Below, in pieces: positions 16,750-32,854 of a stretch of DNA of 40,062 nucleotides. Both the position numbers and the translations under genes were made by a program. The stretch is from a virus (taxonomy: Duplodnaviria > Heunggongvirae > Uroviricota > Caudoviricetes): the IMG/VR virus record IMGVR_UViG_2671180458_000005; one strand, written 5' to 3'. The notes below the pieces were generated by a model, which ran no database searches, had not been told where the DNA came from, and saw only the letters and a list, made by a program, of their open reading frames with translations. Position 1 is the stretch's first letter. Each line of letters starts with the position of its first letter.

Positions 16750-17414
16750 TGCATATCAGAAATTTTTCGTATTACACCCCGGCAGAGCCGGATGTTGCAG
16801 GCGCGATGTACCTGAAGTCTGAGGATGGTCAGGACTGGTATGAGTGTCAGGCGTTGTTTTCGCCGGAGACGCTGAAGGTGGTGTATGACAGCCGGGGTGT
16901 GATTACGGGATACGGTAAGGACACTGCGTTACTGTGGCCGGTGAACCAGAGTGTGGCAGAAGTGCCGGATACCCCGGAGAGCCGGAAAATTGACCTGAGC
17001 GGGCGCTGGGGCTTTGACGGGGAGAAAATCACGGACCTGCTGACCGCGGAGAAAGCGCGAGGGATGAAGGGCGATGAAATAAACGCGTGGCGTAATGCGA
17101 TGGAAGCGGCGAACTACACGTTTGAGCACAATGGGCGTAAATGGGACTACGGGAAGTCAACGCAGACGCGTCTTGAGCCGTCGGTGGCTGCAGCGAAAGC
17201 GGGGAAACTGCCGGAGGCGTTTTTCTGGACGGATGCGGAAAACAATGATGTGCCGGTGACAGCAGAAGAGCTTATAGCGCTGAGTGAAGCGGCAGAGCAG
17301 GCGATGTTCACTAAAGGGATGGAAATCCACATTCGCCAGCGCACCATGAAGAAGGAGCTGGAAAAGCTGACCAGTGCGGATGAGATACTGGCATACAGGG
17401 TGGACTGGAAATAA
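16746..17414 (+). CDS. tfa: Tail fiber assembly protein (Tfa family)
   Basis: 222 aa; N-terminal pattern (SEDGQDWYE...VVYDSRGVITG...AEVPD...GRWGFDG) resembles E. coli prophage Tfa proteins as recalled; position after stf. Confidence 0.65.
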   Translation: MMHIRNFSYYTPAEPDVAGAMYLKSEDGQDWYECQALFSPETLKVVYDSRGVITGYGKDTALLWPVNQSVAEVPDTPESRKIDLSGRWGFDGEKITDLLTAEKARGMKGDEINAWRNAMEAANYTFEHNGRKWDYGKSTQTRLEPSVAAAKAGKLPEAFFWTDAENNDVPVTAEELIALSEAAEQAMFTKGMEIHIRQRTMKKELEKLTSADEILAYRVDWK

Positions 17415-17905
17415 AAAGAAGGGGAGCGGATGCTCCCCTGATATCTGAGTAGTATGCTGTTTATCGTTATCATTCATCAAAAGAATATTACCGTATGGCA
17501 CGGCAGCAGAACATGAAATTTGTCTCAGAACTGCAAATCAGCATTACGGGTAGTCAGGCAGATAACACAACGGGATAAAAAAACAGCAAAATGCATTGAT
17601 AAAAAATTTTTACAGGTAGGTTACCGGGCGTTATGTGACGCATATCAAAAACAGAACTGTAACGGGAGATAACAGAATGATGGATTCTGGCGTGGAGTAA
17701 CGGCGCAATGCGTTCCGGGATGGTGTTTCTGAGAATGTGGCTGAAAACGCCCACAATACAGTAAGAAAAATCCTAATCGATTATATTAATTTTTACGGAA
17801 CTATTCGGAATACCCTTATGAAAGGCAACGAAGTGTCAGTATTTTTAATGTGTTCTGACACGCGTTGCTCTGTTTGTATACAAATCATTTCATAGGGTAT
17901 ACCAG

Positions 17906-19177
17906 ATGAACAAAAAATTCTCTAAGACTATTCTTTCTTCTGTTGTTGCCGGACTGTTGCTGGTAAGTAGTGGGGGTGTTGCAAAAGAGATTGATATTGG
18001 TGGTAAATATAAAGTTATTCTGACAGAGGAAACAGGTTCGGCAAGGATTGTGGATATAAATACTAAAAAAGATTTATTTGATGGAATTATTAATGCGAAA
18101 ACAGGCACTGTTACTACTGTAAACAAAAAAGAGATTCAATCTGCTATAGATAGTTTTTATGCCGCTAACCCAAAAATAAATAAAGATGATCCAAACATTA
18201 AACAGATGGTGGCTCAGGCTGCTGGTAATTCGGGGCGTTATACAGTCTCTTTACCCAGTGGGCTCCCTTCGTTAACGACTGAAAATATTTTCAATCTAAA
18301 AGTGACTGATATTGAAAAAATAAAATCTAATATTGATGGTGTTAATTCAGTTATCACCAGTAAAACTGCAAAAGATTACAATATTGCTATCAGTAACGGC
18401 ATGAGTTCAGAAGCTGCGCTAACAGCGGCTAAAGATGGTAATGGAGCGCTGTTACAGGAATTCAACCGTCTCGGCACAAATGTAAATGACCTGAAAAATG
18501 CCACTACATTTGCTCTTGATGAAAATGGTGAAATTACCTATGAAAAAGGAGTGGAAAGCATTCCTGTTAAGGATGTGGTTGCAGAGGTAAAAGCCGATAC
18601 AACAATTCGTAAGAACAAAGATGGCAGCTATACCCTGGATCAGACCGCGCCTGATACTGTTCGTGTGAACGCTGCAATTGTTGATCTGGATAAAAATCTG
18701 AAAGACAGAACCACTGTTGGCGTGAATTCAGACGGCAGCCTGACCACTGCTGAAGGAGCCACAAAAACTGTTGCGGTAAGTGAAGGCCTTGTTTCCCTGT
18801 CGGGAAGAACTGGCCGTATTGATGCTGCGGTTGGTGGCATTGACACCCGTGTCACCAAAAACACTCAGACTATCCAGAATCACTCCCGCCAGCTGCAGGA
18901 GCATAACGCGCGGCTGAACAGTCAGCAGCGTCAGATTCGTGAAAACCACGAAGAAATGAAACGTGCTGCTGCACAGAGTGCGGCACTGGCAGGTTTGTTC
19001 CAGCCGTACAGTGTGGGTAAATTCAACGCCACGGCAGCACTGGGTGGTTACAGTGACAAACAGGCTATGGCCGTTGGTGTGGGTTACCGCTTTAACGAGC
19101 AGACAGCAGCCAAAGCAGGTATTGCAGCCAGCGACGGTGATGTATCCTACAACGTTGGTGTGAACTTCGAGTTTTAA
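17906..19177 (+). CDS. Trimeric autotransporter adhesin with YadA-like C-terminal anchor (Eib-like family)
   Basis: 423 aa; N-terminal signal peptide; coiled-coil stretch ([42 protein letters not shown]); C-terminal beta-barrel anchor ending NVGVNFEF; low-GC, AT-rich upstream region. Confidence 0.65.
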
Positions 19178-19201
19178 TTGCGGACAGTGACATGAAGCAT
19201 G

Positions 19202-19234
19202 ACGGCAGGCAGGGGATTTGGCCTGCCGTTTTTT
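19202..19234 (+). terminator. Rho-independent terminator after adhesin gene
   Basis: CGGCAGGC...GCCTGCCG hairpin followed by TTTTTTT. Confidence 0.6.
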
Positions 19235-19264
19235 TCTCATGTGAGCATGAAACAGGGGGCTGCG

Positions 19265-19738
19265 ATGAAAGTGATTCTGGCGACCCGTAACCGTTATCTG
19301 GAGTACGGTCTGCAACAGATGCTGGAAGGTTACAGGGTGATACTGGCGAGGGAATTTTTTATCCCGGAGAACAGGAAGAGTGTACCGACCCATGATGAGT
19401 CCTGGGTGATTATCTGTGATGCTATGGTGAGTCGTCTGATGCGCTGTATGTTTCAGGGACGCCGTTATCTTCAACTGGATGCGGAGGAGATTACAGGGCG
19501 TCTGGAAACGGACAGGAAAATCCGTAACGGTGACTGGGAACAGAACACATACGCACGTCCGCTGACGATGTCAGAGATGGTGGTGATGTTTGGTTATGTA
19601 TACCGGGAGTCAAAGCCGTGTCATCTTGCCCGTGAAATGGGAATTCACACGAAGACAGTGAACACCTTTCTGTATATGGGGCTTGGTAAAAACGGCCTGA
19701 GGTACAGAAGTGTGAAGCATCTTGTGGGGCGGGCATAG
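19265..19738 (+). CDS. LuxR/GerE-type HTH transcriptional regulator
   Basis: Start at ATG 19265 behind AGGGGG; C-terminal segment LTMSEMVVMFGYVYRESKPCHLAREMGIHTKTVNTFLYMGLGK fits LuxR-type HTH pattern. Confidence 0.5.
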   Translation: MKVILATRNRYLEYGLQQMLEGYRVILAREFFIPENRKSVPTHDESWVIICDAMVSRLMRCMFQGRRYLQLDAEEITGRLETDRKIRNGDWEQNTYARPLTMSEMVVMFGYVYRESKPCHLAREMGIHTKTVNTFLYMGLGKNGLRYRSVKHLVGRA

Positions 19739-20570
19739 CCGCGTTTTGTTATCCGGGGGTGAAGAATAATCTGGTAAATTGTCATGAAACAGGCAAATCT
19801 GAAATACGTAAAGAAGCGCTACACAGCAGGAGCGATGTGTTTCATGCTTTTTGTGTGGCTGGGTACGGTGGTAACGCTCTGTGCAGTGGCTGCCTTAATG
19901 ATGCAATAAAAAAGGGGAGCTGCACAGCTCCCCGACCAGAAGAAAGAAACTTGATTACAATAAGTGAGTTGTTAAGTCGTCAGAATAATGGCATACAAAA
20001 TATGTCATGACAGCGATACCGATCGCGTTTAGTAAAGTGGGGTTAGGTCGTATTTCGCTCGCGCACGGTTACATGCTTCATTAACCACACCATTGTTGCC
20101 GGACATAGGAAATTCCCTGCAGGTGGATGAGCGATTTTCATAAATGCTGTAGCAGGCATTGACTCTCGGTTGACCGCTCAGGACCACACAGCGAGGATTT
20201 TTCTGGTTAGTGCTCTGCATGCATCGATGGTACGGAGAAATCTGTTCTGTCAGTGTTACGGGGATGGTACCGCCAGCATCATCTGCTTCAGCTCAGTAAA
20301 AAGAGACGCGGAAAAATGCACAACAGGCACCACACATCACGCATGGATTAGGATTGTTCATAAATTCACTACGCAAGTATTAGTAATGATAATGGATAAC
20401 AGACAATATTTTATCAGAAAGAAAAAAGTAAGATGGTCAAAAATGCCCCAAAGAAAGCTTGGAATATTCTTCTTAAATTTCACGTGATTTATTGATTTTT
20501 CGTGTATGTTTTTAATACATTTATTCCAAGAAAAATTTATAACCTTTTGATTTTACGATTCGGTATTATC

Positions 20571-20631
20571 GGTCTCGAAAACCGGAGTGGGGGCAACTCC
20601 ACCGGGGGTTCAAATCCCCCTCTCTCCGCCA
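20571..20631 (+). other. 3-prime fragment of a tRNA-Ser (serU-like) gene = attP core
   Basis: GGTCTCGAAAACCGGAGTGGGGGCAACTCCACCGGGGGTTCAAATCCCCCTCTCTCCGCCA matches anticodon-arm-to-CCA portion of E. coli serU as recalled; 5-prime half absent; adjacent to int 3-prime end. Confidence 0.65.
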
Positions 20632-20683
20632 GAATTCAATCACTTACACATCATTAAGTCAATGATGAAAATCACACTTGGAA

Positions 20684-21709
20684 TTACTTGGAATATTTTG
20701 TTGGAATATTCTGGGGTAATGGTACATCCAGTGTGGGTGAGATCTTTACTTTTCTATCATAGATTAGCACCTGTCCTTCGGTCTTGTGACCAGAGAAAAG
20801 TTGCTTATCCCGGCTACTACCTTCGTAATCTGATATCCCCTTGGCTTTAAGGTCATGGAATGTAAAATCCGTCGCGATCCCTGATATTTGTCCAGCCAAA
20901 TTTCTTGCCTCAACCCACATTTCATTAAATCCTTTATACATGTAACGGTTGCCGTACTGATTGCTGATTACATAGGCTGACTTGGGTAGCTGTTTAGCTT
21001 TTTCTATAACTGATTGCAGACGGGGAGTCCAGGCTTTTATCTGTTTCTTTCCTGTTTTACCTTGCTGGATAAAGATCCCGTCGTTTCCGATCTGTTCCCA
21101 TTTCAGAGACAACACATCGGAAATCCTTGCTGCGCACAGGTATGCAATTTCCATTGCGATAAAAACAGGCACAGGAGCCACGCTTAATACGGCCTGGTAT
21201 TCTTTGTCAGTCACATAGCGCTCTCGGTTTTTGGCCTTGAATTTACTTACACCGGCACAAGGATTAGCCTTTACATACCCTCGTTCATACCCCCAACTGT
21301 AAACGCGTGACATGCTGCTTTTTTCATGGTTTGCCTGCGTTTTACTCTGCTCGCCCCTTTTGTCCATGTATCGTCTGATGTGCTCTGGTTTTACAGAATC
21401 GGCCAGCACCTTACCGAATACGGCCAGCAGTTTTTTTTGATGTTGCAGATAATCTTTTTGCGTTCTGGGACTAAGATCGCTGTAATAGGCGCTGGCGAGA
21501 AATTTTTCCCACAAACGCCCAAATGTCATTGCGTGATCATGATGGTTAACCGTTTCTTCATATTTTTTCCATAATGCGGCTAAACCATCCTTGATTGCAG
21601 TTAAGGTTACAGATTCTCTGGATGTTGGTTTCCATACATAACTATATTTATTGGGATATACCTTTGGCGGTAATTTTTCGTGTTCGGGATTTTTCCTTCG
21701 TCTTCCCAT
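20684..21709 (-). CDS. int: Tyrosine site-specific integrase
   Basis: 341 aa; position next to att core and upstream xis; Arg/His/Tyr-containing C-terminal region typical of phage integrases. Confidence 0.85.
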   Translation of the reverse strand: MGRRRKNPEHEKLPPKVYPNKYSYVWKPTSRESVTLTAIKDGLAALWKKYEETVNHHDHAMTFGRLWEKFLASAYYSDLSPRTQKDYLQHQKKLLAVFGKVLADSVKPEHIRRYMDKRGEQSKTQANHEKSSMSRVYSWGYERGYVKANPCAGVSKFKAKNRERYVTDKEYQAVLSVAPVPVFIAMEIAYLCAARISDVLSLKWEQIGNDGIFIQQGKTGKKQIKAWTPRLQSVIEKAKQLPKSAYVISNQYGNRYMYKGFNEMWVEARNLAGQISGIATDFTFHDLKAKGISDYEGSSRDKQLFSGHKTEGQVLIYDRKVKISPTLDVPLPQNIPTKYSK

Positions 21710-21912
21710 TAGATCGCACCGAAATCAGGTTCAGCCTCACGTGGTGGTAAAGTGTTTCTACAGGTAAACAGTTCCCGACTGACGATCGGTTTTCCACTAC
21801 GATTGGTATAGAACGGAAGCCCATTTTTTATTAACCAGTTGCGCTGGTGGCTTGCATATTTGCAGCCCGTTAATATTAGCAATTCATCTTCGGTTAAAAA
21901 TAAGCTGCTCAT
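21709..21912 (-). CDS. xis: Excisionase-like small DNA-binding protein
   Basis: 67 aa; 1-nt overlap with int start; position. Confidence 0.55.
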   Translation of the reverse strand: MSSLFLTEDELLILTGCKYASHQRNWLIKNGLPFYTNRSGKPIVSRELFTCRNTLPPREAEPDFGAI

Positions 21913-21970
21913 AGCTATATCTCATAACCGCCGCTAACTATATGCGGTTAGCGGCGATCAGGGTTGAACA

Positions 21971-24415
21971 TTAAAAATCAGCCTGATTTGGGAACAGTTT
22001 TTGCCAGATAGCTGAAACGTATTTTGCCTGGTAACGCGCATCGTGCAGGGCATTATGGCGTTCACCCTCAAATGTGGTGACGTTGCGGGCATCGAAATCC
22101 ATCACCAACCCCAGAGCGACCATCGTTCTTACATCGCGATCATTGGTGTAACGCCACGGGCAGGGGATCTCCTGCCGTTCATATGAACGGCGTAAAATCA
22201 CGTTGTCGAAGTTGGCTCCATTTCCCCAGACCTGAACAAAAAACTCACCGGAGTTTTCGTCTATAAATTCCCGTAATTGTAAAAGCGCATCATCAAGCGG
22301 TATTCGATCAGCTAAAATGGCGGCACGGGCTTCGCCAGAGCGTTGAAGCCACCATTCGATGGTGCTTATGTCTACAGTGCCGCCACATGTACCCATATCA
22401 ATTATTTTGCTGAATTCAGGCCCCTGCTCTCCGGTTTGTGGATCGAAAAATACAGCGCCTATTGAGGCTATTGGTGCGTCAGGATTTTTGCCCATTGTTT
22501 CAAGGTCAATCATCAGATGGTGCCACAACCTGCTGGTGGATGTGATTTCACGATGACCGTTCACCTTAATTAAGAGATTTGCTGTCTCGCCTGTTTCATT
22601 ATTGCCATTGGCATGTTGATCGCCTTCGGTGCACTCCTTGTTCGGGAGTCCGGCACTTTCCATTTCCTCCGGATCTTTTTCCCGGGCTTCATCCTGGCTT
22701 TCTTCGTTGAATGTCTCCTGGTATGTTGCGTCGCCCATCACCGCGCCACAGTCAGGACAGTTGCCGCCGCCGGTCTGACCGCAGGCTGTGCAGACTTTTT
22801 CCGGTTCCTGTTGCGCTACTGGTTCAGGCTGTTTCGTTTCTGGCTCGTTTTGTTGCGCATTTGGACTGTGTTGTTCCGCTTTATGGCCTTTCTGTTCCGT
22901 TTCTTGCTGGTTATGGTTCACAGAATCGCGGGTTTCAATCCCCTTCACCCATTTTGGATCATTCGGGTCGCTAATCCCTTCAACAAATTCTCCGTGAGAA
23001 GCAGCCAGTAATTTATCTGCATCGACAGGATTTTTGGGTGGAATGTTTTTCCTGGCTTCATAGAGTTCTGCACGCAGTTTCTGATATTTCGCATCAACAG
23101 AATTTATCTGTGGCTGAGCATTCATCGACTGCGTGTCCTGATTATGTTCAGTTGTATCCGGTTCCACTGCTTCAGTCGTTGCCTGTTCATCTGCCATTGC
23201 GCCAGATGGCTGCGGTTTTTCTTCATCATCCTGTTTTCCTTCTTTTGTTACACGCTGCGGCATTGGAGCAGAGGAGCGACCGCAGGCAATATCCACGATT
23301 TCTGGATCAGGGTTGGCATGGTCGGTTTCGGTCAGTACTTTGTTCAGATATTCGGTAACACGGTGGGGAGTAGCCTCGATACCAATTGGTGCTTCTTTCA
23401 CGGACGCAACCACTATCGCGCGGGAATAATCCAGGTGACCAGGCATGGCGATGAATTTGTCACGAAAAACAGAAAAGGGCGGCTTATTCTCTGAAACGAT
23501 TTCTTCAATGCGTTTGGCGTGTGCCGGATGTGGATTGTAAATATCGATGTCCATTGAACGGGCCAGAACGCCAGCGGCAACGTCACGTTCCACTGACGCA
23601 TCATCGTGGACAAAACCTTCACCGCGATCGGTAAGAATTCCTCCGCCAGCATTAGCGCCGGATGGCGTGCGGCTGATGCGTAAAGCACGATTTCCTTTCA
23701 TCCACTCTTTTGTCAGCAGACCTCGATCGGTATAGTCAGCGTCCAGGTATGCTTCGAAAAAAGCAGTCATTAACCCCAGACTGGAATTAACGGGATTAGG
23801 GAAAACTTTGTCTGTGTCGCGTACCAGTTTGTGAAGGTCGCGAATCTCCAGCGGGTCGAGCAGCTTTGTGTTGTGGGAAATAGCCAGGGCAGTAACAGCA
23901 GGCAGTTCTTCAGCTCGTGCGATATGTAATGCCTGAAGTTCTTCCCGTGAAACGTGCGTTACCGGTTTTTCGCTGCCATGTTGCGCAAGCCAGCGAATGG
24001 GCAGTTCCTGACCGGAAATCGGCAGGAGCATATTATCCTCAATCTCAGCCATGTCTTCGCCATTGACGTTGGTATTGTCAGTGCTGGCTGGTTTGTCCTG
24101 AACTGAGGGGGAAGGCGCTATAAATATCATTGTGATGCCATCTTCTCCGCCTTTTTCATAGCGGTTGCAGAATTCGGTATCAAACACACCTTCAGGCGGC
24201 AGGTCATTAACAATGGGCAAATTCACGCGAACAGGTTTTTTGAAATCCTCTTCGTCAAATCCAGCATCGTCCATTGCGACAACACCCCGTGATATTGCAA
24301 CCGATAATTTTTTTGCTGTGCGCCAGTAAAAACCGCCTTTAATCCCAAGGCGTTTTCTGACTTTGTCATTTTTGGCTTCGTAATACAGTGCAATTTCTTC
24401 TTTATCAGTGCTCAT
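21971..24415 (-). CDS. Large exonuclease with C-terminal DnaQ-like DEDDh 3-5 exonuclease domain and central zinc-ribbon motif
   Basis: 814 aa; C-terminus has MIDLETMG (Exo I-like) and [15 protein letters not shown] (Exo III-like) motifs; [16 protein letters not shown] Cys4 motif; acidic linker; N-terminal part resembles prophage proteins annotated exodeoxyribonuclease VIII (recalled). Confidence 0.7.
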
Positions 24416-24507
24416 TGATAAACCTCATAACTATTTTAAGGTTGTACGAATCCCTGCCATTGCTGGCATACTTAATCAACGGGTATGGCGTTAATATGGC
24501 TGGCGGG

Positions 24508-24696
24508 TTATCCAGCCGGTATTTCGTTATTCAGGTACAGCGATACTTTGTTTAACGGGAGACATTCACCGGAAATTTTTTGCTCGTCTCTTGCCTGATG
24601 GCAGGATTCTTTACTGGCATAAATTCCGGTAATCACATTCTGTGGCTCACCCGTTATAAGAAAAACAGTCATTACCAGTGCAAATGCAGAAGTCAC
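24508..24696 (-). CDS. Small membrane protein, YdfD-like
   Basis: 62 aa with N-terminal hydrophobic helix; ATGA overlap with DicB-like gene upstream; synteny with dicB-ydfD of Qin prophage (recalled). Confidence 0.5.
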   Translation of the reverse strand: MTSAFALVMTVFLITGEPQNVITGIYASKESCHQARDEQKISGECLPLNKVSLYLNNEIPAG

Positions 24697-24881
24697 TGCT
24701 GCCCCCCGAAAATACCAAGTTTAAGAAGGGCAATTCTGGAGAGTATGGAATTATCATTGAGAAGATAAGGCTCATATTTTCTCATCTTAATGGCATCTTC
24801 AGTAAACTCCCGGTTACTGAGCAGAACACCAATATCAAAACACCCTTCAGACGTATTAACGTTTGGTAATAACGTTTCCAT
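24693..24881 (-). CDS. dicB: Cell division inhibitor DicB homologue
   Basis: 62 aa METLLPNVNTSEGCFDIGV...FTEDAI... closely resembles E. coli DicB N-terminus and length as recalled; dicF-like RNA upstream. Confidence 0.65.
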   Translation of the reverse strand: METLLPNVNTSEGCFDIGVLLSNREFTEDAIKMRKYEPYLLNDNSILSRIALLKLGIFGGQQ

Positions 24882-24891
24882 TATCGCGTCC

Positions 24892-25449
24892 TCAACAATG
24901 AATTTTTAGTAATTGCTCCACAGTCATATTTTTAATTGCGCTCCGGTTTACAAGAGTCCAGCCTTGTTTCTCCAGATAAAACTGGAAGGTATCCAGGGTG
25001 CAGACCATTGCGCCGTCCGGAACGGTTTCAGTGAATTTGATATTGCCGTGTTCGTCGAGACGGATAACCAGGGTACGTCCGTCCCCGTGAATCATTTTGT
25101 CGGGAGACGGGGCGTTATTCTGGCGCAGTTCTTTCTCCATGCGATCGAACTCAGCGATGTAGGCTTCTTTAAATGCAGCGGCTTTTTTGCCGGTGAAGCC
25201 CATCACCAGGAAAACGAAGCCGTTTTTGGTGATTTGGTACATTGGGAGTTTGCGACTGGTTGAGTCGGTATATTCGCTCGACACAAAATTGTGCTCAGTG
25301 AATTTTGCTGAACAGTCCAGATTGCGAATTTTATCCAACACTCGTTCGTGGCGTTTACCAAAGAACTCAGCGATCGCAATAGACGTAGTGACAGCGCGTC
25401 CATTTTCGATGGTTACGTCAGGGTGAGAAAGGGCAGGGATAGTAGCCAT
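24892..25449 (-). CDS. Rha-family phage regulatory protein
   Basis: Motifs FFGKRHERVLDKIRNL and PMYQITKNGFVFLVMGFTGKKAAAFKEAYIAEFDRME fit Rha family; start set at internal ATG 25449 (GAGG upstream); the longer ORF to 25746 crosses a hairpin plus T-run, so the true start is uncertain. Confidence 0.6.
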   Translation of the reverse strand: MATIPALSHPDVTIENGRAVTTSIAIAEFFGKRHERVLDKIRNLDCSAKFTEHNFVSSEYTDSTSRKLPMYQITKNGFVFLVMGFTGKKAAAFKEAYIAEFDRMEKELRQNNAPSPDKMIHGDGRTLVIRLDEHGNIKFTETVPDGAMVCTLDTFQFYLEKQGWTLVNRSAIKNMTVEQLLKIHC

Positions 25450-25929
25450 GATGGCAGCCTCGATAGTCAGTTTAAATAACTCACCACCAAGGCTTTCCAC
25501 GACCATAAGGGTGGTGAGACGTACAGGGGTGGAAATACCGGTGACTACCGAAACCGGCCAGCCTTTCGGCTGCCCTGCACGCCCCACCATAATCTGAATG
25601 TGGCTGTGCATTACGCATAAAAAAACCGCCTGAGCGCGGTTATGCGCAGTAGTCATCATCGGGTTTCCACGCCCGGCACCCGCTTTATGAGGTGCAGGTG
25701 CACTATAATTCCACCCATTCTGGTTTTCAATAGCTACATTCAACATTTTCTCTTACCCTTCATCACCGAAGTGAACTTTGTTGATGCAGTGCCTGGTGCC
25801 TCCAGGTGACGTTAACCAGTTAACAATTAACGCCGGATTGTTAGTTGATGTCTGTTACGCCAGTAAAAGACCGCTTGTTTTAACTGTTCCGCGTGCGCTT
25901 AGCCGCATTCACCGCATCACAAAATTCAC

Positions 25930-25992
25930 TTTAAAAAGGGTGGCAGAGCAGTCACGGAGTAGAACTGATGCCACCAAAGACTACACATGGGT
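25930..25992 (-). ncRNA. dicF: DicF-like small RNA
   Basis: Minus strand reads ...UCAGUUCUACUCCGUGACUGCUCUGCCACCCUUUUU, near-identical to the 3-prime two-thirds of E. coli DicF as recalled, including terminator hairpin and U-run; downstream flank also matches; 5-prime end less conserved and not mapped. Confidence 0.65.
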
Positions 25993-26241
25993 ATTGTGGC
26001 GGGGCTGTCACTTAATCGTATGGTCAACCTGACAACCCGGTGCATTTTCTGGAGCAATGGAGGAAACCCCAGCCATACTTACCGCCGCGCCATTTCGCGG
26101 ATTGCCACAACCGGAAGCGCACGTTCGAAGAAATCTAACGACAAGCCTTCTAAGGGAAAGAGCTTCGCCGTGCGCTTTCGTGTTATACCCTGACTTTTCA
26201 GGGTAAATTAACCAGTGGCAACCTGTTTTTACTGGTGCTAA

Positions 26242-26394
26242 TCAGTTAGTGTTTCTGGCTAACCAGCGACGCGCGCCAGCTTCGGTTTTAAACTTTTTAC
26301 TTTTGGTATACGTCATCGCGGTAAACGTGCCGTCCTGGTTAGGGAACACACCGCATACCAGAGATTCGTTGTTGCCAAGATTGAGCGTATCCAT
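26242..26394 (-). CDS. Hypothetical small protein, first ORF downstream of the leftward promoter
   Basis: 50 aa MDTLNLGNNESLVCGVFPNQDGTFTAMTYTKSKKFKTEAGARRWLARNTN; not in ORF track; no family recognised. Confidence 0.4.
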   Translation of the reverse strand: MDTLNLGNNESLVCGVFPNQDGTFTAMTYTKSKKFKTEAGARRWLARNTN

Positions 26395-26577
26395 GTTGAC
26401 CTCATTTACCCTTAACGCCGGGTCGCGGAACTAAAAACCTGCTGCGCTGTTATACAAAGTGTTCCCGCCGTCATGTTCATACGCCTCGGGCTGGCTACTT
26501 AACCCCTTGCCACTGCCGGGTAACTCGAAGTATTGCCTGGCGTTCTGTGGGGCGGAGTGGGTTGGTGAGTGCAATCT

Positions 26578-26616
26578 ACAATTAAAAACTGTTTTGTGTC
26601 AACAGTTTTTAATTGT
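26578..26616. promoter_or_regulatory. Operator palindrome (OL-like) containing a leftward promoter
   Basis: ACAATTAAAAACTGTT-TTGTGTC-AACAGTTTTTAATTGT; on minus strand a perfect TTGACA -35 sits in the centre with TAGATT about 18 nt downstream; near-identical palindrome at 27612..27650. Confidence 0.65.
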
Positions 26617-26625
26617 GCATTTAAG

Positions 26626-26649
26626 CAAAAAAATCCCTCGAAAGAGGGA
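26626..26649 (-). terminator. Rho-independent terminator after parE-like gene (minus strand)
   Basis: Minus strand TCCCTC-TTTC-GAGGGA followed by TTTTTTT. Confidence 0.65.
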
Positions 26650-26667
26650 GTATGAAAATAGTTCAGC

Positions 26668-26955
26668 TCAGATAGAGAAGGGAAATTGTCGGCGAGCATG
26701 TGTCACGCTTACAATCTCAATGCTTGAAGCAGCTACTCTGTACAGGATTATGTAGTTAGGGTGGGTCACTATCTCTCTCAACCCAGAAACCCGTTCGCTT
26801 GGTGGATATAGGTACGGATGCTCAGATAGAGGTAATACCGATGTTTCAATACGTATTTTAAGTCTACGCGCTGCCGGTGGGTTCTCCTTGGCGATGTAAG
26901 TTATGATCTGACGCAAATCATCGCGAGCAGATGGTAGCCATAAAATGGGCAACAT
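26668..26955 (-). CDS. ParE/RelE-family type II toxin
   Basis: 95 aa; start codon overlaps antitoxin stop by 1 nt; sequence pattern typical of ParE toxins (recalled). Confidence 0.7.
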   Translation of the reverse strand: MLPILWLPSARDDLRQIITYIAKENPPAARRLKIRIETSVLPLSEHPYLYPPSERVSGLREIVTHPNYIILYRVAASSIEIVSVTHARRQFPFSI

Positions 26956-27146
26956 TACTCGCTCCTGTTAGTTACAGCAATTTGAGCAATAAGATTTTCC
27001 ATTTCAGCTATTACCTCGTCATGTGGAATTGCAGGGCGAGGGTCTGCAAGGCTTGACGCTACTTTAGCGCGCAACCATTCGTTGTAACTGTTTTCTTGTT
27101 CGATAGTTTCGAATTCTGAAACTATCGGAGAAAGGGCTGTACTCAT
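26955..27146 (-). CDS. Small antitoxin, PaaA2-like
   Basis: 63 aa MSTALSPIVSEFETIEQENSYNEWLRAKVASSLADPRPAIPHDEV...; size and sequence resemble PaaA2 of the E. coli O157 paaR2-paaA2-parE2 module as recalled; translationally coupled to toxin. Confidence 0.6.
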   Translation of the reverse strand: MSTALSPIVSEFETIEQENSYNEWLRAKVASSLADPRPAIPHDEVIAEMENLIAQIAVTNRSE

Positions 27147-27173
27147 GGCATAACTCCTCTTCTTGTACTGTGG

Positions 27174-27575
27174 TCACGCCCGGCGGCTTTTTTGTGCCGC
27201 CAGCCACCGGGCAATGGTTTCTTCCATTGATTTTTTTTTGTCTTTGATTTCTTGAAGCATTTTTTCTTGGTCCTCCTCAGGGAACGCACTAAAAGCCTGG
27301 AGTAATTCGCGTTGGCGAGGACCAATTTTCATCGTGTTAGGGGTGAACATTTGCTCCCCCTCTTCAGGAGGCAATAAAAACCAATGCAACGGATGCCCTG
27401 TAACCTCAACCAGTTTATCCAAACTTGAGGCTTTAGGTGTAGCCTTACCGCTGACCCATTGTTGAACAGTTTGTTGTGTCACACCAATTCTACGGGCCAG
27501 CTCAGCCTGGCTCCATCCAGTTTCCTGAAGAAGCTTGCTGATTCTGTACATCGATACTTCTAGGGCGCTCATCAT
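27174..27575 (-). CDS. XRE-family HTH repressor (prophage repressor / PaaR-like regulator)
   Basis: HTH segment WSQAELARRIGVTQQTVQQWVSGK; divergent from cro-like gene across an operator palindrome; no LexA-type autocleavage motifs seen; start (MMSALE or MYRIS) uncertain, no SD. Confidence 0.7.
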   Translation of the reverse strand: MMSALEVSMYRISKLLQETGWSQAELARRIGVTQQTVQQWVSGKATPKASSLDKLVEVTGHPLHWFLLPPEEGEQMFTPNTMKIGPRQRELLQAFSAFPEEDQEKMLQEIKDKKKSMEETIARWLAAQKSRRA

Positions 27576-27611
27576 TATTCAATTTTACAGGTAAATACTG
27601 TTAAAAGCATC

Positions 27612-27650
27612 ACAATAAAAAACTGTTGATCGCGTACAGTTTTTTATTGT
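27612..27650. promoter_or_regulatory. Operator palindrome (OR-like) between divergent repressor and cro-like genes
   Basis: ACAATAAAAAACTGT-TGATCGCGT-ACAGTTTTTTATTGT, perfect 15-bp inverted repeat arms. Confidence 0.7.
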
Positions 27651-27683
27651 AGCCTTTGCCTATAGTTTTTAGAGGAGGGCAAA

Positions 27684-27956
27684 ATGCTAGATAGCACTCG
27701 CAAAAAAATTAGGCAGAAATACACTCAGGCTGAAATAGGTCGTTATATGGGGGGCGCTCAACAGACAGTTTGGCAATGGTTTAGCTTTGGCGTTCCCCCA
27801 AAGCAGGTAATTCCGCTATGTCAGCTAATGAAGTGGGAGGTTACCCCGCATGAAATTCGCCCAGACATTTACCCTAATCCGACCGACGGCTTACCTGTCG
27901 AGTATCAGGCTAACACACAACCAGAGGCGGGGGTGATTCATGAAAATCAAGCATGA
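27684..27956 (+). CDS. Cro-like HTH protein, YdaS family
   Basis: 90 aa; GAGGAGGG RBS; HTH with QQTVWQWF; RPDI motif as in Rac YdaS (recalled). Confidence 0.6.
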   Translation: MLDSTRKKIRQKYTQAEIGRYMGGAQQTVWQWFSFGVPPKQVIPLCQLMKWEVTPHEIRPDIYPNPTDGLPVEYQANTQPEAGVIHENQA

Positions 27957-28365
27957 ACACATCCGCATGGCAATGAATGCCTGGGCGTATCCAGACGGTG
28001 AGAAAGTTCCAGCAGCTGAAATAGCCCGGACTTATTTCGAGCTGGGGATGACGTTCCCGGAACTGTACGACGACAGCCATCCGGAAGCCCTGGCTCGTAA
28101 TACCCAGAAAATTTTCCGCTGGGTGGAGAAGGACACGTCTGATGCTGTTGAAAAAATTCAGGCGCTGTTACCGGCGATCGAAAAGGCGATGCCGCCTTTG
28201 CTGGTGGCCCGTATGCGCAGTCACAGTTCTGAATATTACCGGGAGATCGTCGAACGACGGGATCGGCTGGTGAAAGATGTGGATGATTTTGTCGCTGTAG
28301 CGATCGCCTGGGGCACCCTGACTAACAGTGGTGGTCAGCCTGGTAATGCAGTTGTTGTGCATTGA
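27940..28365 (+). CDS. YdaT-family protein
   Basis: 141 aa beginning MKIKHEHI and ending ...VVVH, resembling Rac YdaT termini as recalled; overlaps ydaS-like gene. Confidence 0.6.
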   Translation: MKIKHEHIRMAMNAWAYPDGEKVPAAEIARTYFELGMTFPELYDDSHPEALARNTQKIFRWVEKDTSDAVEKIQALLPAIEKAMPPLLVARMRSHSSEYYREIVERRDRLVKDVDDFVAVAIAWGTLTNSGGQPGNAVVVH

Positions 28366-28433
28366 CCAACAATATTTATACCGGATTTCTTCCGGAAGTT
28401 CGTGGGTAAAGTTCGGTATCAGAAGAGGTGAGT

Positions 28434-29471
28434 ATGGCTAATGCCTGGCTCAGATTGTGGCATGACATGCCAAATGACCCCAAGTGGCGAACGATTGCCA
28501 GGGTATCAGGACAGCCAATCGCAACAGTGATGGCAGTGTATATCCATCTTCTGGTGAGCGCGTCACGAAATGTCACGACATGTCACGGCGTGTCACTACG
28601 TGGTCACATTGATGTCACGACGGAAGATTTAGCAAGTGCGCTTGATGTGACGGAAGACGTAATTGATTCAATTTTGCATGCAATGCAGGGGCGGGTTCTG
28701 GATGGTGACCTTATTTCCGGATGGGAAAAACGTCAGGTGCTGAAAGAGGACAATGGTAACGTTTCGCAAACGGCAAAATCCCCGGCAGAGCGCAAGAGAG
28801 CGCAGCGGGAGCGCGAAAAGCTGCGGAAATATGATGCTGATTGTCACGATGAGTCACGACGTGTCACGCATCTGTCACGACAAGTCACGACAGATAAAGA
28901 TACAGATACAGAATTAAACCCCACACATAACGCGCGCATGCGCGAGAGTGCTCCAACCGGTGAGTCGAATGGTGCGTCGTTGCAGACAGCCGAACCTGAA
29001 TTCCTGGACGGCCTGAGCGAACCGATCGGGAAATTTTCGATGACCACTGTCTGGCAGCCGTCGCCGGATTTTCGACAACGGGCAGCAGTGTGGGGTATGG
29101 CTCTGCCTGAGCCGGAATTTACACCTGCTGAGCTTGCCGCATTCCGGGATTACTGGATGGCGGAGGGGAAGGTTTTCACGCAGGTTCAGTGGGAGCAGAA
29201 ATTTGCCCGCCACGTGCAGCACGTCAGGGCACAGGTAAAACCAGTCAGCAAGGGGGTAAGCCATGCAGCATCAGGTGGCACGGCATCACGGGCAGTTCAG
29301 AAAATCCGGGCAGCACGAGAACAGTGGGAACGTGAAAACGGATTTATCAGCAACGGAAACGGCCTGGAAGCTGTGGGAACTTATGGGGGAGGTGTATTCG
29401 AACCGATGGACCCAGAAGAACGGGGCTGCGCCGTCGAAACTCTGGATTGCTCAGATTGGCGCGATGACTGA
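28434..29471 (+). CDS. Replication initiation protein (lambda O functional analogue, YdaU/DnaT-domain-like) containing origin iterons
   Basis: RBS GAGGTG then ATG 28434; two internal clusters of GTCAC(G) repeats at ~10-bp spacing; followed by P-like gene. Confidence 0.65.
   Translation: MANAWLRLWHDMPNDPKWRTIARVSGQPIATVMAVYIHLLVSASRNVTTCHGVSLRGHIDVTTEDLASALDVTEDVIDSILHAMQGRVLDGDLISGWEKRQVLKEDNGNVSQTAKSPAERKRAQREREKLRKYDADCHDESRRVTHLSRQVTTDKDTDTELNPTHNARMRESAPTGESNGASLQTAEPEFLDGLSEPIGKFSMTTVWQPSPDFRQRAAVWGMALPEPEFTPAELAAFRDYWMAEGKVFTQVQWEQKFARHVQHVRAQVKPVSKGVSHAASGGTASRAVQKIRAAREQWERENGFISNGNGLEAVGTYGGGVFEPMDPEERGCAVETLDCSDWRDD
28562..28889 (+). repeat. Putative replication origin: 11 GTCAC(G) iterons in two clusters (28562..28619 and 28843..28889)
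   Basis: Six repeats at spacing 10,10,10,11,11 and five at 10,10,11,10, helically phased, inside the O-like ORF. Confidence 0.65.
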
Positions 29472-29925
29472 ACAGCAAATCCGGCAGGTCTGCCGTCAGT
29501 GCATGGACCGCTGCCGGGCGGGTGAAACGTGGCCCCCGGACCTGGCTGAGTTTGTTGCGCTGATTTCGGAGAGTGAGGCAAATCCATTTGGTCTTACGGT
29601 GGATGCCGTGATGGAAGAGTACCGGCGCTGGCGCAATGAATCCTGGCGATACGACGGGAGTGATAAATACCCGTGGCCACAGCCTGTGCTGTACCACATC
29701 TGCCTCGAAATGCGTACCAGAGGGATTGAGCGCCAGATGACGCAGGGTGAGTTAAAACGACTTGCGGAACGGCAACTGACGAAATGGGCAAAGCATGTTG
29801 GTAACGGGATGAGTATTCCGCCGATCCGGAGGCAACTCGCATCGCCGAAGCGCCCGCAAGGGCCAACGCCAATTGAATTACTGAAACAGGAATACGAGCG
29901 CCGGAAGGCGGCTGGTTTTGTTTGA
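29263..29925 (+). CDS. Replication protein P-like (helicase loader)
   Basis: C-terminal two-thirds align by eye with lambda P (recalled). Overlaps O-like ORF by about 200 nt in another frame, so the start is uncertain. Confidence 0.6.
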   Translation: MQHQVARHHGQFRKSGQHENSGNVKTDLSATETAWKLWELMGEVYSNRWTQKNGAAPSKLWIAQIGAMTEQQIRQVCRQCMDRCRAGETWPPDLAEFVALISESEANPFGLTVDAVMEEYRRWRNESWRYDGSDKYPWPQPVLYHICLEMRTRGIERQMTQGELKRLAERQLTKWAKHVGNGMSIPPIRRQLASPKRPQGPTPIELLKQEYERRKAAGFV

Positions 29926-29958
29926 ATTTGAGAAATGATTTTGTCGGAGGACGTTTTA

Positions 29959-30633
29959 ATGGAAACCGTTTTTGACGCACTGCAAGCAATGGGAAAAGCC
30001 ACATCCATAGAACTTGCTGCGCGACTTGGTATCAGTCGTGAAGAAGTGCTGAACGAGTTGTGGGAACTGAAAAGAAATGGCGTCGTTGATAAAACGGGTC
30101 ACACCTGGTTTCTGGCTGGTAAAGGTGAATCCGGGGTAACCGAAGAGCAGCCAGCACAATCTGAAGTACCGGATGTGCTGACCGGGGAGGTCGAACAAAA
30201 AGTTACCGCGGACATGATGATTGAGTTTATCTGTCAGGATGGGGCTAAAACGTGTGAGGAACTGGCGGATAAGTTCGGTGTTAGCATTCGCAAGGTTGCT
30301 TCCACGTTGGCGGTCGTAACAGCAACGGGGCGCCTGGCACGCGTAAATCAGAACGGTAAATTTCGTTACTGCATACCGGGCGCTGATTTACCGGCAGAGC
30401 CGGAAGCTGCATCCGTAGCGGAAACCGATGGTAAAGCCTTTCCTCAGCCAGCAGGTGTTGCGTTACCAGTTCGGGAAGCGGAAACACAGGAAGAAATAAA
30501 AACGGAAAGTGTGGCGGTCACAGTGCAGTCACAGCCGTCGTTCACCAGAAAGCATCCGGATGGTCTGATTTTACCATCGCTGCATGTGGCTAACCGCGAG
30601 CTGCGCCGGGCAAAAGGTCAGGTTCAGAAGTGA
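29959..30633 (+). CDS. Hypothetical protein with winged-helix-like segments (DUF1627-like)
   Basis: Start ATG 29959 behind GGAGG; family assignment from memory only. Confidence 0.45.
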
Positions 30634-31034
30634 GAGCGAGTCTGCGCCGCGCTACGGGAGCTGAACAAGTGCCGGGATATTCTCCGGGATATTACCGCCA
30701 CCAGAGAACAGCAGCGGTGAGTGGCTGGAAGACGTGGTGCCGGGCTGAAATCCTGATACTCCGCCAGTGTGTGGGAACTATGAAGGTGAAAAGCATTGGC
30801 GCACTTATCGGACGAACTGAAGCGGCAGTGAGAACGAAGGCACTGGAGCTGGGCATCAGTATGATGTTACGTGGTGATTTTCACCCGTCGGCAAAATATT
30901 CACAGCGTGATATTGAGCTGGCGCGGCAACTGCATCAGCGCGGTGTACCCCGACGGGAAATTGCCGAAAAGTTCGGAATGAAGTTGCGTGCAGTGAATAA
31001 CTACGTTTATTTCGACAGGAGGATTCAGGCGTGA
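30630..31034 (+). CDS. Hypothetical protein with C-terminal HTH-like segment
   Basis: GTG start overlapping previous stop; alternative start ATG 30780; C-terminal [18 protein letters not shown] looks HTH-like. Confidence 0.4.
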
Positions 31035-31336
31035 GGGTGAGAATTTATATCGCCGGTCCGATGACGGGATATGAAAATTTCAACCGCGAGGCGTTTCACA
31101 GGGCGGAAGAAGCGCTGAAACGGGAAGGGCATACCGTTTTAAACCCGGCAGTACTTCCGGACGGGCTGACTCAGCCACATTACATGGATATTTGCATGGC
31201 AATGATTCGTTGTGTGGATGCAATTTACATGCTGAAAGGCTGGCAGCGGTCGGCAGGCGCTAAGGCAGAACTGGCACTGGCAGAGAAACTGGGACATGCG
31301 GTGATTTTCCAGGAGGCAACCAGTGAGCGAAATTAA
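31031..31336 (+). CDS. Nucleoside 2-deoxyribosyltransferase-like protein (DUF4406-like)
   Basis: 101 aa; GTG start behind AGGAGG; N-terminal RIYIAGPMTG...F motif characteristic of the deoxyribosyltransferase-like fold. Confidence 0.6.
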   Translation: MRVRIYIAGPMTGYENFNREAFHRAEEALKREGHTVLNPAVLPDGLTQPHYMDICMAMIRCVDAIYMLKGWQRSAGAKAELALAEKLGHAVIFQEATSERN

Positions 31337-31483
31337 TTACCAGGAACTACGGCAGGTGAAAGAGAAAGCATAATCCAGAACTGAATAATTAAAATCAGCA
31401 CTGTAAATAAAATTTAATCCTTAACCGGAGGGATTTCTGCACCCTCAGAACATCAGGAGACCGCCCGGCAGGGCGGTAGTGAA

Positions 31484-31666
31484 ATGCGAAAGTTCAAAAT
31501 AATTATTGAAACGGGAATAGCCGGTGGAGATTTTGAGGATGTATTCGAAGTGGACGATGACGCAACACCTGATGAAATTCATGACGAAGCAAAAGAAATT
31601 TTCTTTAACTACTGCAATTACTCATATCACGAAATAAAAGACGAAGAGGAAGAACAAAATGGCTGA
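31484..31666 (+). CDS. Small highly acidic protein (hypothetical)
   Basis: 60 aa, about one third Asp/Glu; stop overlaps start of next small ORF (ATGGCTGA). Confidence 0.5.
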   Translation: MRKFKIIIETGIAGGDFEDVFEVDDDATPDEIHDEAKEIFFNYCNYSYHEIKDEEEEQNG

Positions 31667-31835
31667 TTTTGGTTCAACTAAATACAACGTCAGTTTTGAA
31701 GAATGGCATGAACTGTTAATGGACTATGCAGAGTTACGTGGTGGCAGTGCTGCTGATGCTGAAGCATGGCGTGATGATTATGAAGCAGGAAAAACTCCGG
31801 TCGAAGCATATTGTGATGAGTGGGGCGATGAATGA
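31659..31835 (+). CDS. Small acidic protein (hypothetical)
   Basis: 58 aa MADFGSTKYNVSFEEWHELLMDYAELRGGSAADAEAWRDDYEAGKTPVEAYCDEWGDE; overlaps both neighbours by 4-8 nt; not in ORF track. Confidence 0.5.
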   Translation: MADFGSTKYNVSFEEWHELLMDYAELRGGSAADAEAWRDDYEAGKTPVEAYCDEWGDE

Positions 31836-32347
31836 GCGAGATTAATTATCAGGAAGGGCATGAAACGGCAGGGCAGGCAAAACCAGTTGCATGGCGATAT
31901 CGCTACGTGAAAAAAGACGTTACAGACTTTCAGGGGAAGCCGTGGGCTGGTGACTGGAAATATGTACCGACAAAAGAGGATTGTAACGACAGGCCGAACT
32001 ATGAAATTCAGGCCTTATTCATCGGCCCGCCAGTCCCGGTGACATCAGAAGGACTGGTTAAAGCTGTGCGCTTTTATGAACAGGTAAAGCGTGAGAATCC
32101 GCCAGTCGAAACAGGAGCATGGAAGGATGCTGTTGACTGGGTGCTCAGAGAGGCCTGCTGTGCTGCCATTCTGGGTAAAGCCGACAATCCACCAGCATCC
32201 GGCAATCAGGTTAGCGAATTAGCAATGTGGGTTAAACGGCTGGTCAGCCAACTGAAAAAAGCGAAGCCGGACTGCAAATTACCGGATAAGGCGATGGACT
32301 ACCTGAAGCGAAACGGACTGATAAACGAGGAGGATATTTTACGATGA
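31832..32347 (+). CDS. Hypothetical protein
   Basis: 171 aa; ATGA overlap with upstream ORF; a truncated copy of its first codons lies at 31323..31372. Confidence 0.55.
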   Translation: MSEINYQEGHETAGQAKPVAWRYRYVKKDVTDFQGKPWAGDWKYVPTKEDCNDRPNYEIQALFIGPPVPVTSEGLVKAVRFYEQVKRENPPVETGAWKDAVDWVLREACCAAILGKADNPPASGNQVSELAMWVKRLVSQLKKAKPDCKLPDKAMDYLKRNGLINEEDILR

Positions 32348-32427
32348 CCTGGCCTGAAGCGTTCATAACGGTAGGAATTGCAATGGCGGTGGCGCTGGTG
32401 GTGTATTCGATTTGCCGCTGGGGATAA
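32344..32427 (+). CDS. Putative 27-aa hydrophobic membrane peptide
   Basis: MTWPEAFITVGIAMAVALVVYSICRWG; ATGA overlap with upstream gene; followed by hairpin. Confidence 0.3.
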   Translation: MTWPEAFITVGIAMAVALVVYSICRWG

Positions 32428-32439
32428 ATTGCCGAAAAA

Positions 32440-32849: not shown

Positions 32850-32854
32850 GCAGA

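Follow-up and report, generated by a model that had tools for sequence, protein, structure and literature searches.

The 40,062-nucleotide stretch of DNA analysed here (hereafter called the window) comes from a virus of the class Caudoviricetes (IMG/VR record IMGVR_UViG_2671180458_000005). On its minus strand, at positions 21971–24415, lies a gene for an 814-residue protein in which a RecE-type N-terminal region is fused to a DEDDh 3′-5′ exonuclease domain. The protein is 100% identical to RefSeq WP_044809020.1, named “3′-5′ exonuclease”. The features of the gene are listed below, with residue numbers referring to this protein.

21971–24415, minus strand: complete open reading frame (ORF) of 814 codons plus stop, from the ORF list; RecE-type N-terminal region fused to the DEDDh 3′-5′ exonuclease
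22568–24415, minus strand: residues 1–616, modules A1 and B, RecE-homologous non-nuclease region (NCBIfam RecE equivalog; BLASTP against K-12 RecE)
23849–24250, minus strand: residues 56–189, PF06630 Exonuc_VIII, N-terminal RecE domain (Pfam, E 6.6e-34)
23216–23743, minus strand: residues 225–400, conserved core of the N-terminal region, where types A1 and A2 overlap (phmmer domain maps)
22568–23029, minus strand: residues 463–616, module B, consisting of linker, Cys4 motif and acidic linker (seven-protein alignment)
22748–22792, minus strand: residues 542–556 (C542–C556), Cys4 motif, putative zinc ribbon (regular-expression search of the translation)
22523–22567, minus strand: residues 617–631, junction linking the RecE-like part to the exonuclease domain (RecE homology stops at residue 616)
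22004–22522, minus strand: residues 632–804, DEDDh 3′-5′ exonuclease domain, PF16473, Rv2179c/DexA family (Pfam, E 1.5e-62)
22505–22507, minus strand: catalytic D637, aligned with D7 of bacteriophage T4 DexA (motif LMIDLET)
22499–22501, minus strand: catalytic E639, aligned with DexA E9 (motif LMIDLET)
22205–22207, minus strand: catalytic D737, aligned with DexA D119 (motif NFDN)
22055–22057, minus strand: catalytic H787, aligned with DexA H186 (motif HNALHD)
22040–22042, minus strand: catalytic D792, aligned with DexA D191 (motif HNALHD)

The C-terminal domain matches PF16473 with 210.9 bits, against a gathering cut-off of 27, and residues 632–804 cover the entire profile (1–177 of 177). Its DEDDh residues align one to one with those of T4 DexA. 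All five are invariant across a 74-sequence alignment and are kept in every homologue compared, both fused and stand-alone (E. coli, Citrobacter and Vibrio phages). Searches with the window protein and with its homologue from Citrobacter phage Chris1 returned near-identical proteins only and gave no alignment depth; the structural model of residues 617–814 was built from 74 diverse stand-alone homologues. This AlphaFold2 (AF2) model has a mean predicted local distance difference test score (pLDDT) of 90.2 and a predicted template modelling score (pTM) of 0.86. In a Foldseek search of the PDB, its top match is T4 DexA (8KEL/8KEN; E 5e-12, template modelling score 0.73), followed by RNase T, the DnaQ domain, oligoribonuclease (Orn) and REXO2, with RNase T, DnaQ, Orn and DexA all matched at a probability of 1.00. 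The model and the Foldseek matches together assign the domain to the DnaQ/RNase T-like fold, and DexA is also the sole PDB match by sequence (E 1.6e-5). DexA differs in that it is a stand-alone protein of 227 residues with extra loops. The window domain is predicted to be a Mg2+-dependent 3′-5′ exonuclease.

The rest of the protein, up to residue 616, is homologous to RecE. The NCBIfam RecE equivalog NF007259 aligns with residues 1–616 only (profile positions 1–602 of 877) and gives 1069.9 bits, under its curated cut-off of 1269 bits. By BLASTP, residues 58–616 are 74% identical to residues 50–591 of K-12 RecE, taken from the Rac prophage. This enzyme (exodeoxyribonuclease VIII, b1350) shares PF06630, the conserved core, the Cys4 motif and the acidic linkers with the window protein, but it ends in a PD-(D/E)xK nuclease (PF12684, residues 615–850; E 4e-28 in the Pfam scan), of which the window protein shows neither a PF12684 match nor any BLASTP or tblastn similarity. 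RecE degrades DNA in the 5′-3′ direction, whereas the window protein would be expected to act 3′-5′. The original prediction, made from the sequence of the window without database searches, had described an 814-residue fusion of a RecE-like N-terminus with a DnaQ-type C-terminus of the DEDDh rather than the PD-(D/E)xK type. Both Pfam domains, the extent of the RecE homology, the residues mapped on DexA and the predicted fold bear this out. It had also singled out the Cys4 motif and the acidic linker; both are present, but they are not special to this protein, as RecE has both.

Modular composition, selection and prevalence

The modular structure of the gene emerges from an alignment of seven proteins: the window protein, a 98%-identical copy, three Qin-type copies, the Chris1 homologue and K-12 RecE. 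Module A (residues 1–462) is of the RecE type (A1) in the window protein, RecE and Chris1, and of another type (A2) in the Qin copies; A1 and A2 are only 16% identical and have in common a central core of approximately residues 225–400. Module B (residues 463–616) is found in RecE, the window protein and the Qin type, and not in Chris1. Module C is the PD-(D/E)xK nuclease in RecE and the DEDDh domain in the remaining six proteins. The Qin-type exonuclease (823 residues; WP_000048357.1, phrog_2082) thus resembles the window protein in its dicB-ydfD-exo-xis-int locus, module B, junction peptide and DEDDh domain, and phrog_2082 matches residues 463–814 of the window protein. In contrast, its N-terminal ~460 residues are of type A2, have no PF06630 match and are related to the window A1 in the central core only. 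Judged from this alignment, the window allele is a three-module mosaic, with a RecE-type module A joined to a Qin-type module B and exonuclease domain.

Acidic residues account for 19–27% of the segments flanking the Cys4 motif, and the motif, which may bind zinc, is kept in K-12 RecE and the Qin-type copies and absent from the Chris1 homologue. The junction (residues 617–631) is common to the Qin-type copies and is not found in the stand-alone protein gp26 of phage mEp460. The latter, as in SfV/ST64B-type phages, is encoded directly upstream of an excisionase gene and is 57% identical to the window C-terminal domain, but has only 190 residues, lacks the N-terminal region and keeps the tryptophan equivalent to DexA W152. 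The mEp460 gene could be of the kind from which the DEDDh domain was recruited. We also considered an internal start at M635, which would yield a stand-alone exonuclease, and set it aside when a reading of the sequence, short of a formal test, revealed no convincing ribosome-binding site.

All three modules are under purifying selection, and the gene is maintained. The ratio of nonsynonymous to synonymous substitution rates (dN/dS, Nei-Gojobori) is 0.12–0.34 per module in every informative pair, at dS values of 0.25–0.9. It is 0.24–0.34 for residues 1–616 against K-12 recE, 0.23–0.25 for module B against the Qin-type copies (68–79% amino-acid identity), and 0.17–0.19 for the DEDDh domain, which is 77–82% identical to that of the Qin-type copies.

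How common is this gene? Its nucleotide sequence is 100% identical to that of a gene in several chromosomes of Shiga toxin-producing E. coli, annotated as “3′-5′ exonuclease” or “exonuclease”, and the identical protein (P0001), present in NCBI and UniRef, is recorded on 989 contigs, its precomputed architecture being PF06630+PF16473. Of 5426 complete E. coli genomes, 1213 carry a copy that spans 80% or more of the gene. The DEDDh domain, counted with the last 600 bases of the gene as the query and a match covering at least 80% of it, occurs in 4071 of the 5426 (75%), mostly at ~80% nucleotide identity, with a median of 2 and a maximum of 8 copies. The RecE nuclease domain, by comparison, is found in 1730 (32%), so that the unusualness implied by the original prediction does not hold: the DEDDh form is the commoner one in E. 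coli. The 823-residue “exonuclease” stands in the dicB-ydfD-exo-xis-int order of Qin-like prophages in three sampled loci with two xis/int types. In K-12 Qin the order is dicB-ydfD-ydfE(pseudogene)-IS2-intQ, and K-12 ydfE is 98.8% identical to the first 256 residues of the 823-residue protein. The fusion is frequent in Citrobacter and Salmonella and is found as well in Atlantibacter, Kluyvera and Enterobacter. Citrobacter phage Chris1 encodes the same fusion, at ~39% identity, directly upstream of int and without an annealase. A record of an Stx2a-converting phage, LC727874.1, matches the exonuclease gene at 97%.

The window gene is therefore one allele of a widespread exonuclease of enterobacterial lambdoid prophages, among the commonest E. 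coli prophage genes. The protein and its architecture are already catalogued in RefSeq, Pfam and PHROGs, under inconsistent names (“exodeoxyribonuclease VIII”, “RecE family”, “exonuclease”, “3′-5′ exoribonuclease”), and we found no study of the fused protein in the literature on Rv2179c, ydfE and exodeoxyribonuclease VIII/DEDDh.

The early-left locus and the search for an annealase

The exonuclease gene is distal in a dicBF-type early-left cluster with the order DUF1391/ydfA, DicF, antirepressor insert, dicB, ydfD-like gene, exonuclease, xis and int. Its upstream neighbours stand in the same order as dicB-ydfD-ydfE of K-12 Qin. The main features around it are as follows.

26573–26602, minus strand: candidate pL/dicBp-like promoter, TTGACA-18-TAGATT (consensus scan, 10/12 matches)
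25938–25989, minus strand: DicF small RNA gene, which marks the operon as dicBF-type early-left (Rfam RF00039, 61.1 bits; gathering score 48)
24693–24881, minus strand: DicB (name given by the NCBI annotation pipeline PGAP in the near-identical locus L002; PHROG match)
24508–24696, minus strand: YdfD-like DUF1482 protein (PGAP name in L002; PHROG match)
21709–21912, minus strand: DUF4224 excisionase-like gene, xis (ORF; PGAP name)
20684–21709, minus strand: tyrosine integrase (ORF; PGAP name)

Does this locus encode a partner for the exonuclease? By annotation, profile scans and tblastn, neither the interval from xis to the immunity region nor any other part of the window yielded an annealase. 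In near-identical E. coli loci, the genes annotated by PGAP from the repressor to int are those for RelB/RelE, DUF1391, a Rha-family regulator, DicB, DUF1482, the exonuclease and the DUF4224 excisionase. The Pfam and PHROG scans covered the window ORFs at 17.9–38.3 kb, the tail-gene half (1–17.9 kb) being excluded. They identified a DnaT-like O protein, P, DUF1627, DUF968, RusA, Q and a methylase, and gave no match to the RecT, Bet, Erf, Sak and Rad52 families, three ORFs in this interval having no match in the library applied to them. When RecT, a Rad52-like annealase and the RecE nuclease domain were compared with the complete 40 kb by six-frame tblastn, nothing was returned; lambda Bet, Erf and Sak4 were not among these queries.

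K-12 recE, like the window gene, lies late in an early-left operon and upstream of xis-int, but it is followed by recT, ralR and rcbA (recE-recT-ralR-rcbA-xisR-intR), whereas the exonuclease gene of the window is followed by xis after a gap of 58 bp, with none of recT, ralR and rcbA in between. The order is exonuclease-xis-int or exonuclease-int, without an annealase, in 7/7 loci (the window, L001, L002, L010–L012 and phage Chris1). A two-component recombinase of the Red, RecET or “SynExo” kind combines a 5′-3′ exonuclease with an annealase, and neither was found in the window. Without a RecT/Bet/Erf-type partner, classical Red/RecET recombination by the locus alone is therefore excluded. The original prediction, which saw no annealase between xis and the immunity region, suggested a role outside classical Red-type recombination and advised a check of neighbouring genomes for a RecT, Erf or Sak partner, agrees with these results.

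In K-12, ydfABC-dicF-dicB-ydfDE forms one transcript from the pL-like promoter dicBp, which is repressed by DicA (bioRxiv 10.1101/2023.04.14.536235). The candidate promoter of the window follows a terminator-like hairpin (26634–26649) and lies between relE and the ydfA-like DUF1391 gene, upstream of the latter. By analogy with K-12, the exonuclease gene would belong to the early-left genes, remaining silent in the lysogen and being expressed on induction.

Several other elements surround the gene. The 58-bp gap between the exonuclease stop and the xis start contains, at 21929–21956, a perfect 10-bp inverted repeat, CGCCGCTAAC and GTTAGCGGCG separated by an 8-nt loop. The absence of a T-run behind it sets it apart from typical intrinsic terminators; it could be an RNA-processing or protein-binding site. 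On the minus strand, Rfam finds a row of C4 antisense RNA, isrK and DicF (25507–25594, 25619–25695 and 25938–25989). The first two fall within the 5′ part of the ORF for a 284-residue “Rha family” antirepressor (24892–25746), the first 110 residues of which match Pfam Phage_ASH; this ORF may be over-extended, or the RNAs may overlap the coding sequence as in the c4/icd/ant region of P1. A RelB/RelE toxin-antitoxin pair (26668–27146, minus strand) lies directly 3′ of the repressor gene on the same strand, ahead of the hairpin and the pL-like promoter, and is probably expressed in the lysogen, because its position is analogous to that of lambda rexAB. The best chromosomal matches to window positions 17000–33000 start at ~20570, beside a tRNA-Ser gene in the bacterial chromosome, and to the left of this point the window runs into tail genes and a gene for a 423-residue adhesin-like protein (17906–19177). 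The gene order of the window is thus either that of the phage (circularly joined), or the window spans tandem prophages.

C-terminal domains attached to the RecE N-terminal region

A HMMER search with residues 1–616 over 1.84 billion cluster representatives yielded 229 clusters, and the C-terminal parts of the best 150 representatives were classified by local phmmer as follows.

DEDDh domain: 13 of the best 150
RecE nuclease: 18 of the best 150
Unassigned tail family T1: 25 of the best 150
Tail family T2, Rad52-like: 9 of the best 150

The core of residues 225–400 is common to the Qin-type exonuclease and to the annealase-fused and T1-tail relatives. The motifs DRGLL.KEW.KGNR, NAGGG.TDR and LDYSRA are invariant among 15 aligned fusion proteins of the E. 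coli and Citrobacter types.

The T1 tail (P0285, P0328, P0379 and 22 others) comprises ~200 residues with the consensus end YRQQLT.AALQGLCANPA. It matches no Pfam domain or known family; its only full-length PHROG match is phrog_26058, to which no function is assigned. The T2 tail (phrog_2489/7838) is annotated “exonuclease” and carries the motif KKSLTDAIKKALSLLGFSADIWLGLYD, which we take to be a hallmark of the Rad52/Sak proteins. PF04098 Rad52_Rad22 weakly matches 6/7 of the T2 tails tested (best E 0.0024), a profile search of the PDB with the tail gave nothing significant, and “DNA repair protein” is the annotation given to stand-alone T2 homologues of Pseudomonas phages. The T2 tail is probably a Rad52/Sak-type annealase, as far as these motif and profile matches and the gene context indicate, and its public names (“RecE family exodeoxyribonuclease”, “putative exonuclease” and the “exonuclease” of phrog_7838) are probably wrong.

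The fusions of this type have 690–814 residues, with a RecE/Qin-type N-terminal region and a tail of ~265 residues. They are gp07 of Pectobacterium phage ZF40, P0275 (Salmonella bongori WP_079779093.1), P0250, P0311, P0314, P0321, P0332 and P0371. In ZF40 (L040:3645–5810) a Sipho_Gp157 gene comes after the fused gene. One further protein, P0243 (703 residues), has residues 1–528 of the RecE N-terminal region in frame with a RecT-like annealase (phrog_148, E 1.5e-72), and is either a natural recE-recT deletion fusion or an artefact of assembly or gene calling.

Within ~3.5 kb (2983–6541), Pseudomonas phage LKA5 (L041) has the gene for a Rad52-like annealase, which is a stand-alone T2 homologue, followed by genes for DUF1351, an unannotated product, an RNase_T-type (PF00929) DEDDh exonuclease and a single-stranded DNA-binding protein. 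Its annealase is thus encoded near a 3′-5′ rather than a 5′-3′ exonuclease. A link between PF16473 and Rad52-like annealases in Pseudomonas Hollowayvirus phages was considered and is unconfirmed, as the LKA5 enzyme belongs to PF00929 and is not detectably similar to the window enzyme. In phage Max there is no annealase within 4 kb.

We conclude that the RecE N-terminal region is a recombination-associated module to which differing C-terminal domains are attached.

Proposed role and alternatives

What does the fused exonuclease do? Our preferred reading, to which we give a probability of about 0.6, is that the window gene is an allele of a widespread prophage exonuclease, an induction-expressed 3′-5′ DNA-end exonuclease built on a RecE scaffold. 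In the lysogen, the repressor would silence the early-left cluster, and the protein would be made upon prophage induction. By two-metal-ion catalysis, the C-terminal domain would then take nucleotides off free 3′ ends, most probably those of DNA (single-stranded DNA or the 3′ ends of linear duplex), as for T4 DexA. Residues 1–616 would serve as a targeting or scaffold region that takes its C-terminal domain to the same DNA-end, recombination or replication intermediate; we propose this because the region carries a 5′-3′ nuclease in Rac RecE, and relatives of its core carry a Rad52-like annealase. With no annealase of its own, the protein would not carry out single-strand annealing of the RecET/Red type. 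More probably, it would trim or degrade 3′ tails and linear DNA in lytic growth. This would serve either nucleotide recycling or end processing on behalf of host pathways or of annealases from co-resident prophages.

Several points weigh against this reading. The activity of the window protein and its fused homologues is predicted, and the identity to DexA is only 22–24%. The name-giver of PF16473, Rv2179c, is an exoribonuclease according to the Pfam description, so the substrate may be RNA. RecA and annealases depend on 3′ tails that a 3′-5′ exonuclease would destroy, and a pro-recombination role is therefore not obvious. The scaffold role of residues 1–616 is suggested by domain shuffling only; a review describes the N-terminal part of RecE as “of unknown function” and places the nuclease domain at residues 564–866 (PMC11611040), and the full-length AF2 model, built from the 15-sequence, two-clade alignment, is unusable (mean pLDDT 32). 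With respect to expression, the promoter scan of 20.5–27.8 kb was not enriched over shuffles, and for this reason the pL-like assignment rests on position, by analogy with dicBp, as co-transcription from that promoter rests on analogy with K-12 Qin. A weak sigma-70-like site, ATGGCA-16-TAAAAT (9/12; 24433–24460, minus strand), just 5′ of the exonuclease start codon would bear on expression in lysogens, and is within the number expected by chance. An independent promoter for the exonuclease gene cannot be claimed, the promoter and terminator scan of this interval having yielded no excess of promoters over shuffles.

Among the other explanations, the one that survives best, although we consider it unlikely, is that the protein is a recombination exonuclease with its partner in trans, which would resect ends for host RecA/RecFOR or the annealases of co-resident prophages, as a functional but differently wired replacement of RecE. 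The N-terminal region common with RecE improves linear-linear recombination when present (PMC11611040), the same phage carries RusA and DUF968 genes, and genomes with multiple prophages are common, with up to 8 copies of the gene and often a Rac-type recET in addition. The clustering of annealase, DEDDh exonuclease and single-stranded DNA-binding protein genes in LKA5 also speaks for such a pairing; the LKA5 exonuclease, however, is from another DEDDh family. Moreover, the predicted polarity would remove the very tails that RecA and annealases need, and none of the 7 loci has a conserved partner in cis.

It is rather improbable that the enzyme is directed at RNA or nucleotides, as an Rv2179c-like exoribonuclease acting in lytic growth on host or phage RNAs or on linear oligonucleotide signals, possibly in anti-defence. 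Mycobacterium tuberculosis Rv2179c, a 3′-5′ exoribonuclease according to Pfam, shares its family with the window domain, but appears neither in the PDB sequence matches nor among the 50 Foldseek matches listed. The structural neighbours that follow DexA include RNase T, oligoribonuclease and REXO2, and regulatory RNAs (DicF, isrK and C4) abound in the operon. In contrast, the best solved match by both sequence and structure is the DNA exonuclease DexA, and fusion to the scaffold of a double-stranded DNA exonuclease, which bears a DNA annealase in relatives, points to DNA. In none of the loci examined is the gene linked to a defence system or a signalling enzyme. Of the two functions suggested by the original prediction, DNA-end processing thus gains support from DexA as the nearest solved relative and from the RecE-type N-terminus, whereas anti-defence found none. 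As both DNA and RNA are often substrates for DEDDh enzymes of this type, the two readings are not mutually exclusive.

Could the protein instead defend the lysogen against T-even phages, by degrading incoming DNA that contains 5-hydroxymethylcytosine (5hmC)? T4 DexA is reported to depend on W152 and D169 for its action on 5hmC DNA, and EcD, a stand-alone DexA homologue of E. coli in which alanine replaces the tetramer-forming D90, is reported to digest T4 DNA and to protect against T4 (PMC12153337). EcD (“HREX”, HAK9828821.1) is of the same Pfam family as the window domain. An EcD-like protein (L016:2067–2636), retrieved from viral contigs by the published EcD forward primer, has 189 residues, starts with MIDTET, has alanine at position 78, keeps the catalytic residues and is 40% identical to window residues 617–814; the reverse primer is one base off, and its identity with EcD is unproven. 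The neighbouring DicB, too, is reported to be protective against some phages (PMC6832061).

Nevertheless, the position of DexA W152, which is required on T4 DNA, is occupied by T757 in the window protein and by tyrosine or serine in the Qin-type copies, while tryptophan is retained in the EcD-like protein, mEp460 and Chris1. DexA D169 corresponds to V771, in a column within a poorly aligned loop, and D90, the residue replaced by alanine in EcD for its claimed specificity, is kept as D709. By this alignment, the features said to define HREX are absent from the window protein. A gene in a repressor-controlled early-left operon should, by analogy, be silent in the lysogen, PADLOC gives only a generic match to a Cas-associated DEDDh protein (E 1.8e-4), and the 616 residues of RecE to which the domain is fused, unlike in stand-alone EcD, would be left unexplained. 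A defence function therefore appears improbable.

Finally, that the gene is a decayed recET remnant without selected function, its nuclease domain and recT destroyed by illegitimate replacement, might seem to follow from O157 Sakai, in which seven prophages carry recombination systems of the Exo VIII type and only that of Sp10 is intact (PMC2669165), from the IS2-truncated pseudogene ydfE that is all K-12 Qin has, and from some E. coli copies interrupted by IS3 (H11 and H12), but this is the least credible explanation of all, and the selection analysis has already refuted it for the most part: thousands of genomes carry the ORF intact, dN/dS is low in every module including the DEDDh domain, the catalytic residues are kept down to ~39% identity in other genera and the architecture is retained in several enterobacterial genera, so that purifying selection, conserved catalytic residues and a fusion kept across genera together rule out a decaying remnant.

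As a sequence feature, the gene is ordinary, and its importance is modest. What is mildly new is its maintenance by selection, which sets it apart from a defective recET, and the occurrence of the RecE N-terminal region with interchangeable C-terminal domains. The Sakai study scored most Exo VIII-type systems as defective, while the selection data show that the DEDDh-type gene is maintained. Since the fused proteins do not conserve the residues said to be specific, the defence claim made for EcD/HREX, the only experimental one for an E. coli homologue, should not be extended to them. With several C-terminal domains on one N-terminus, the role of the RecE N-terminus becomes directly testable, which is relevant to RecET recombineering. 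A broader hypothesis, which we put forward only tentatively and think more likely wrong than right, is that the RecE N-terminus is a general delivery scaffold of enterobacterial temperate phages with at least four interchangeable C-terminal domains, and that the DEDDh form, the commonest in E. coli, represents a distinct, annealase-independent pathway of DNA-end processing that replaces RecET/Red in most lambdoid prophages. If so, this pathway could influence recombination between prophages, and hence the mosaic evolution of Stx phages.

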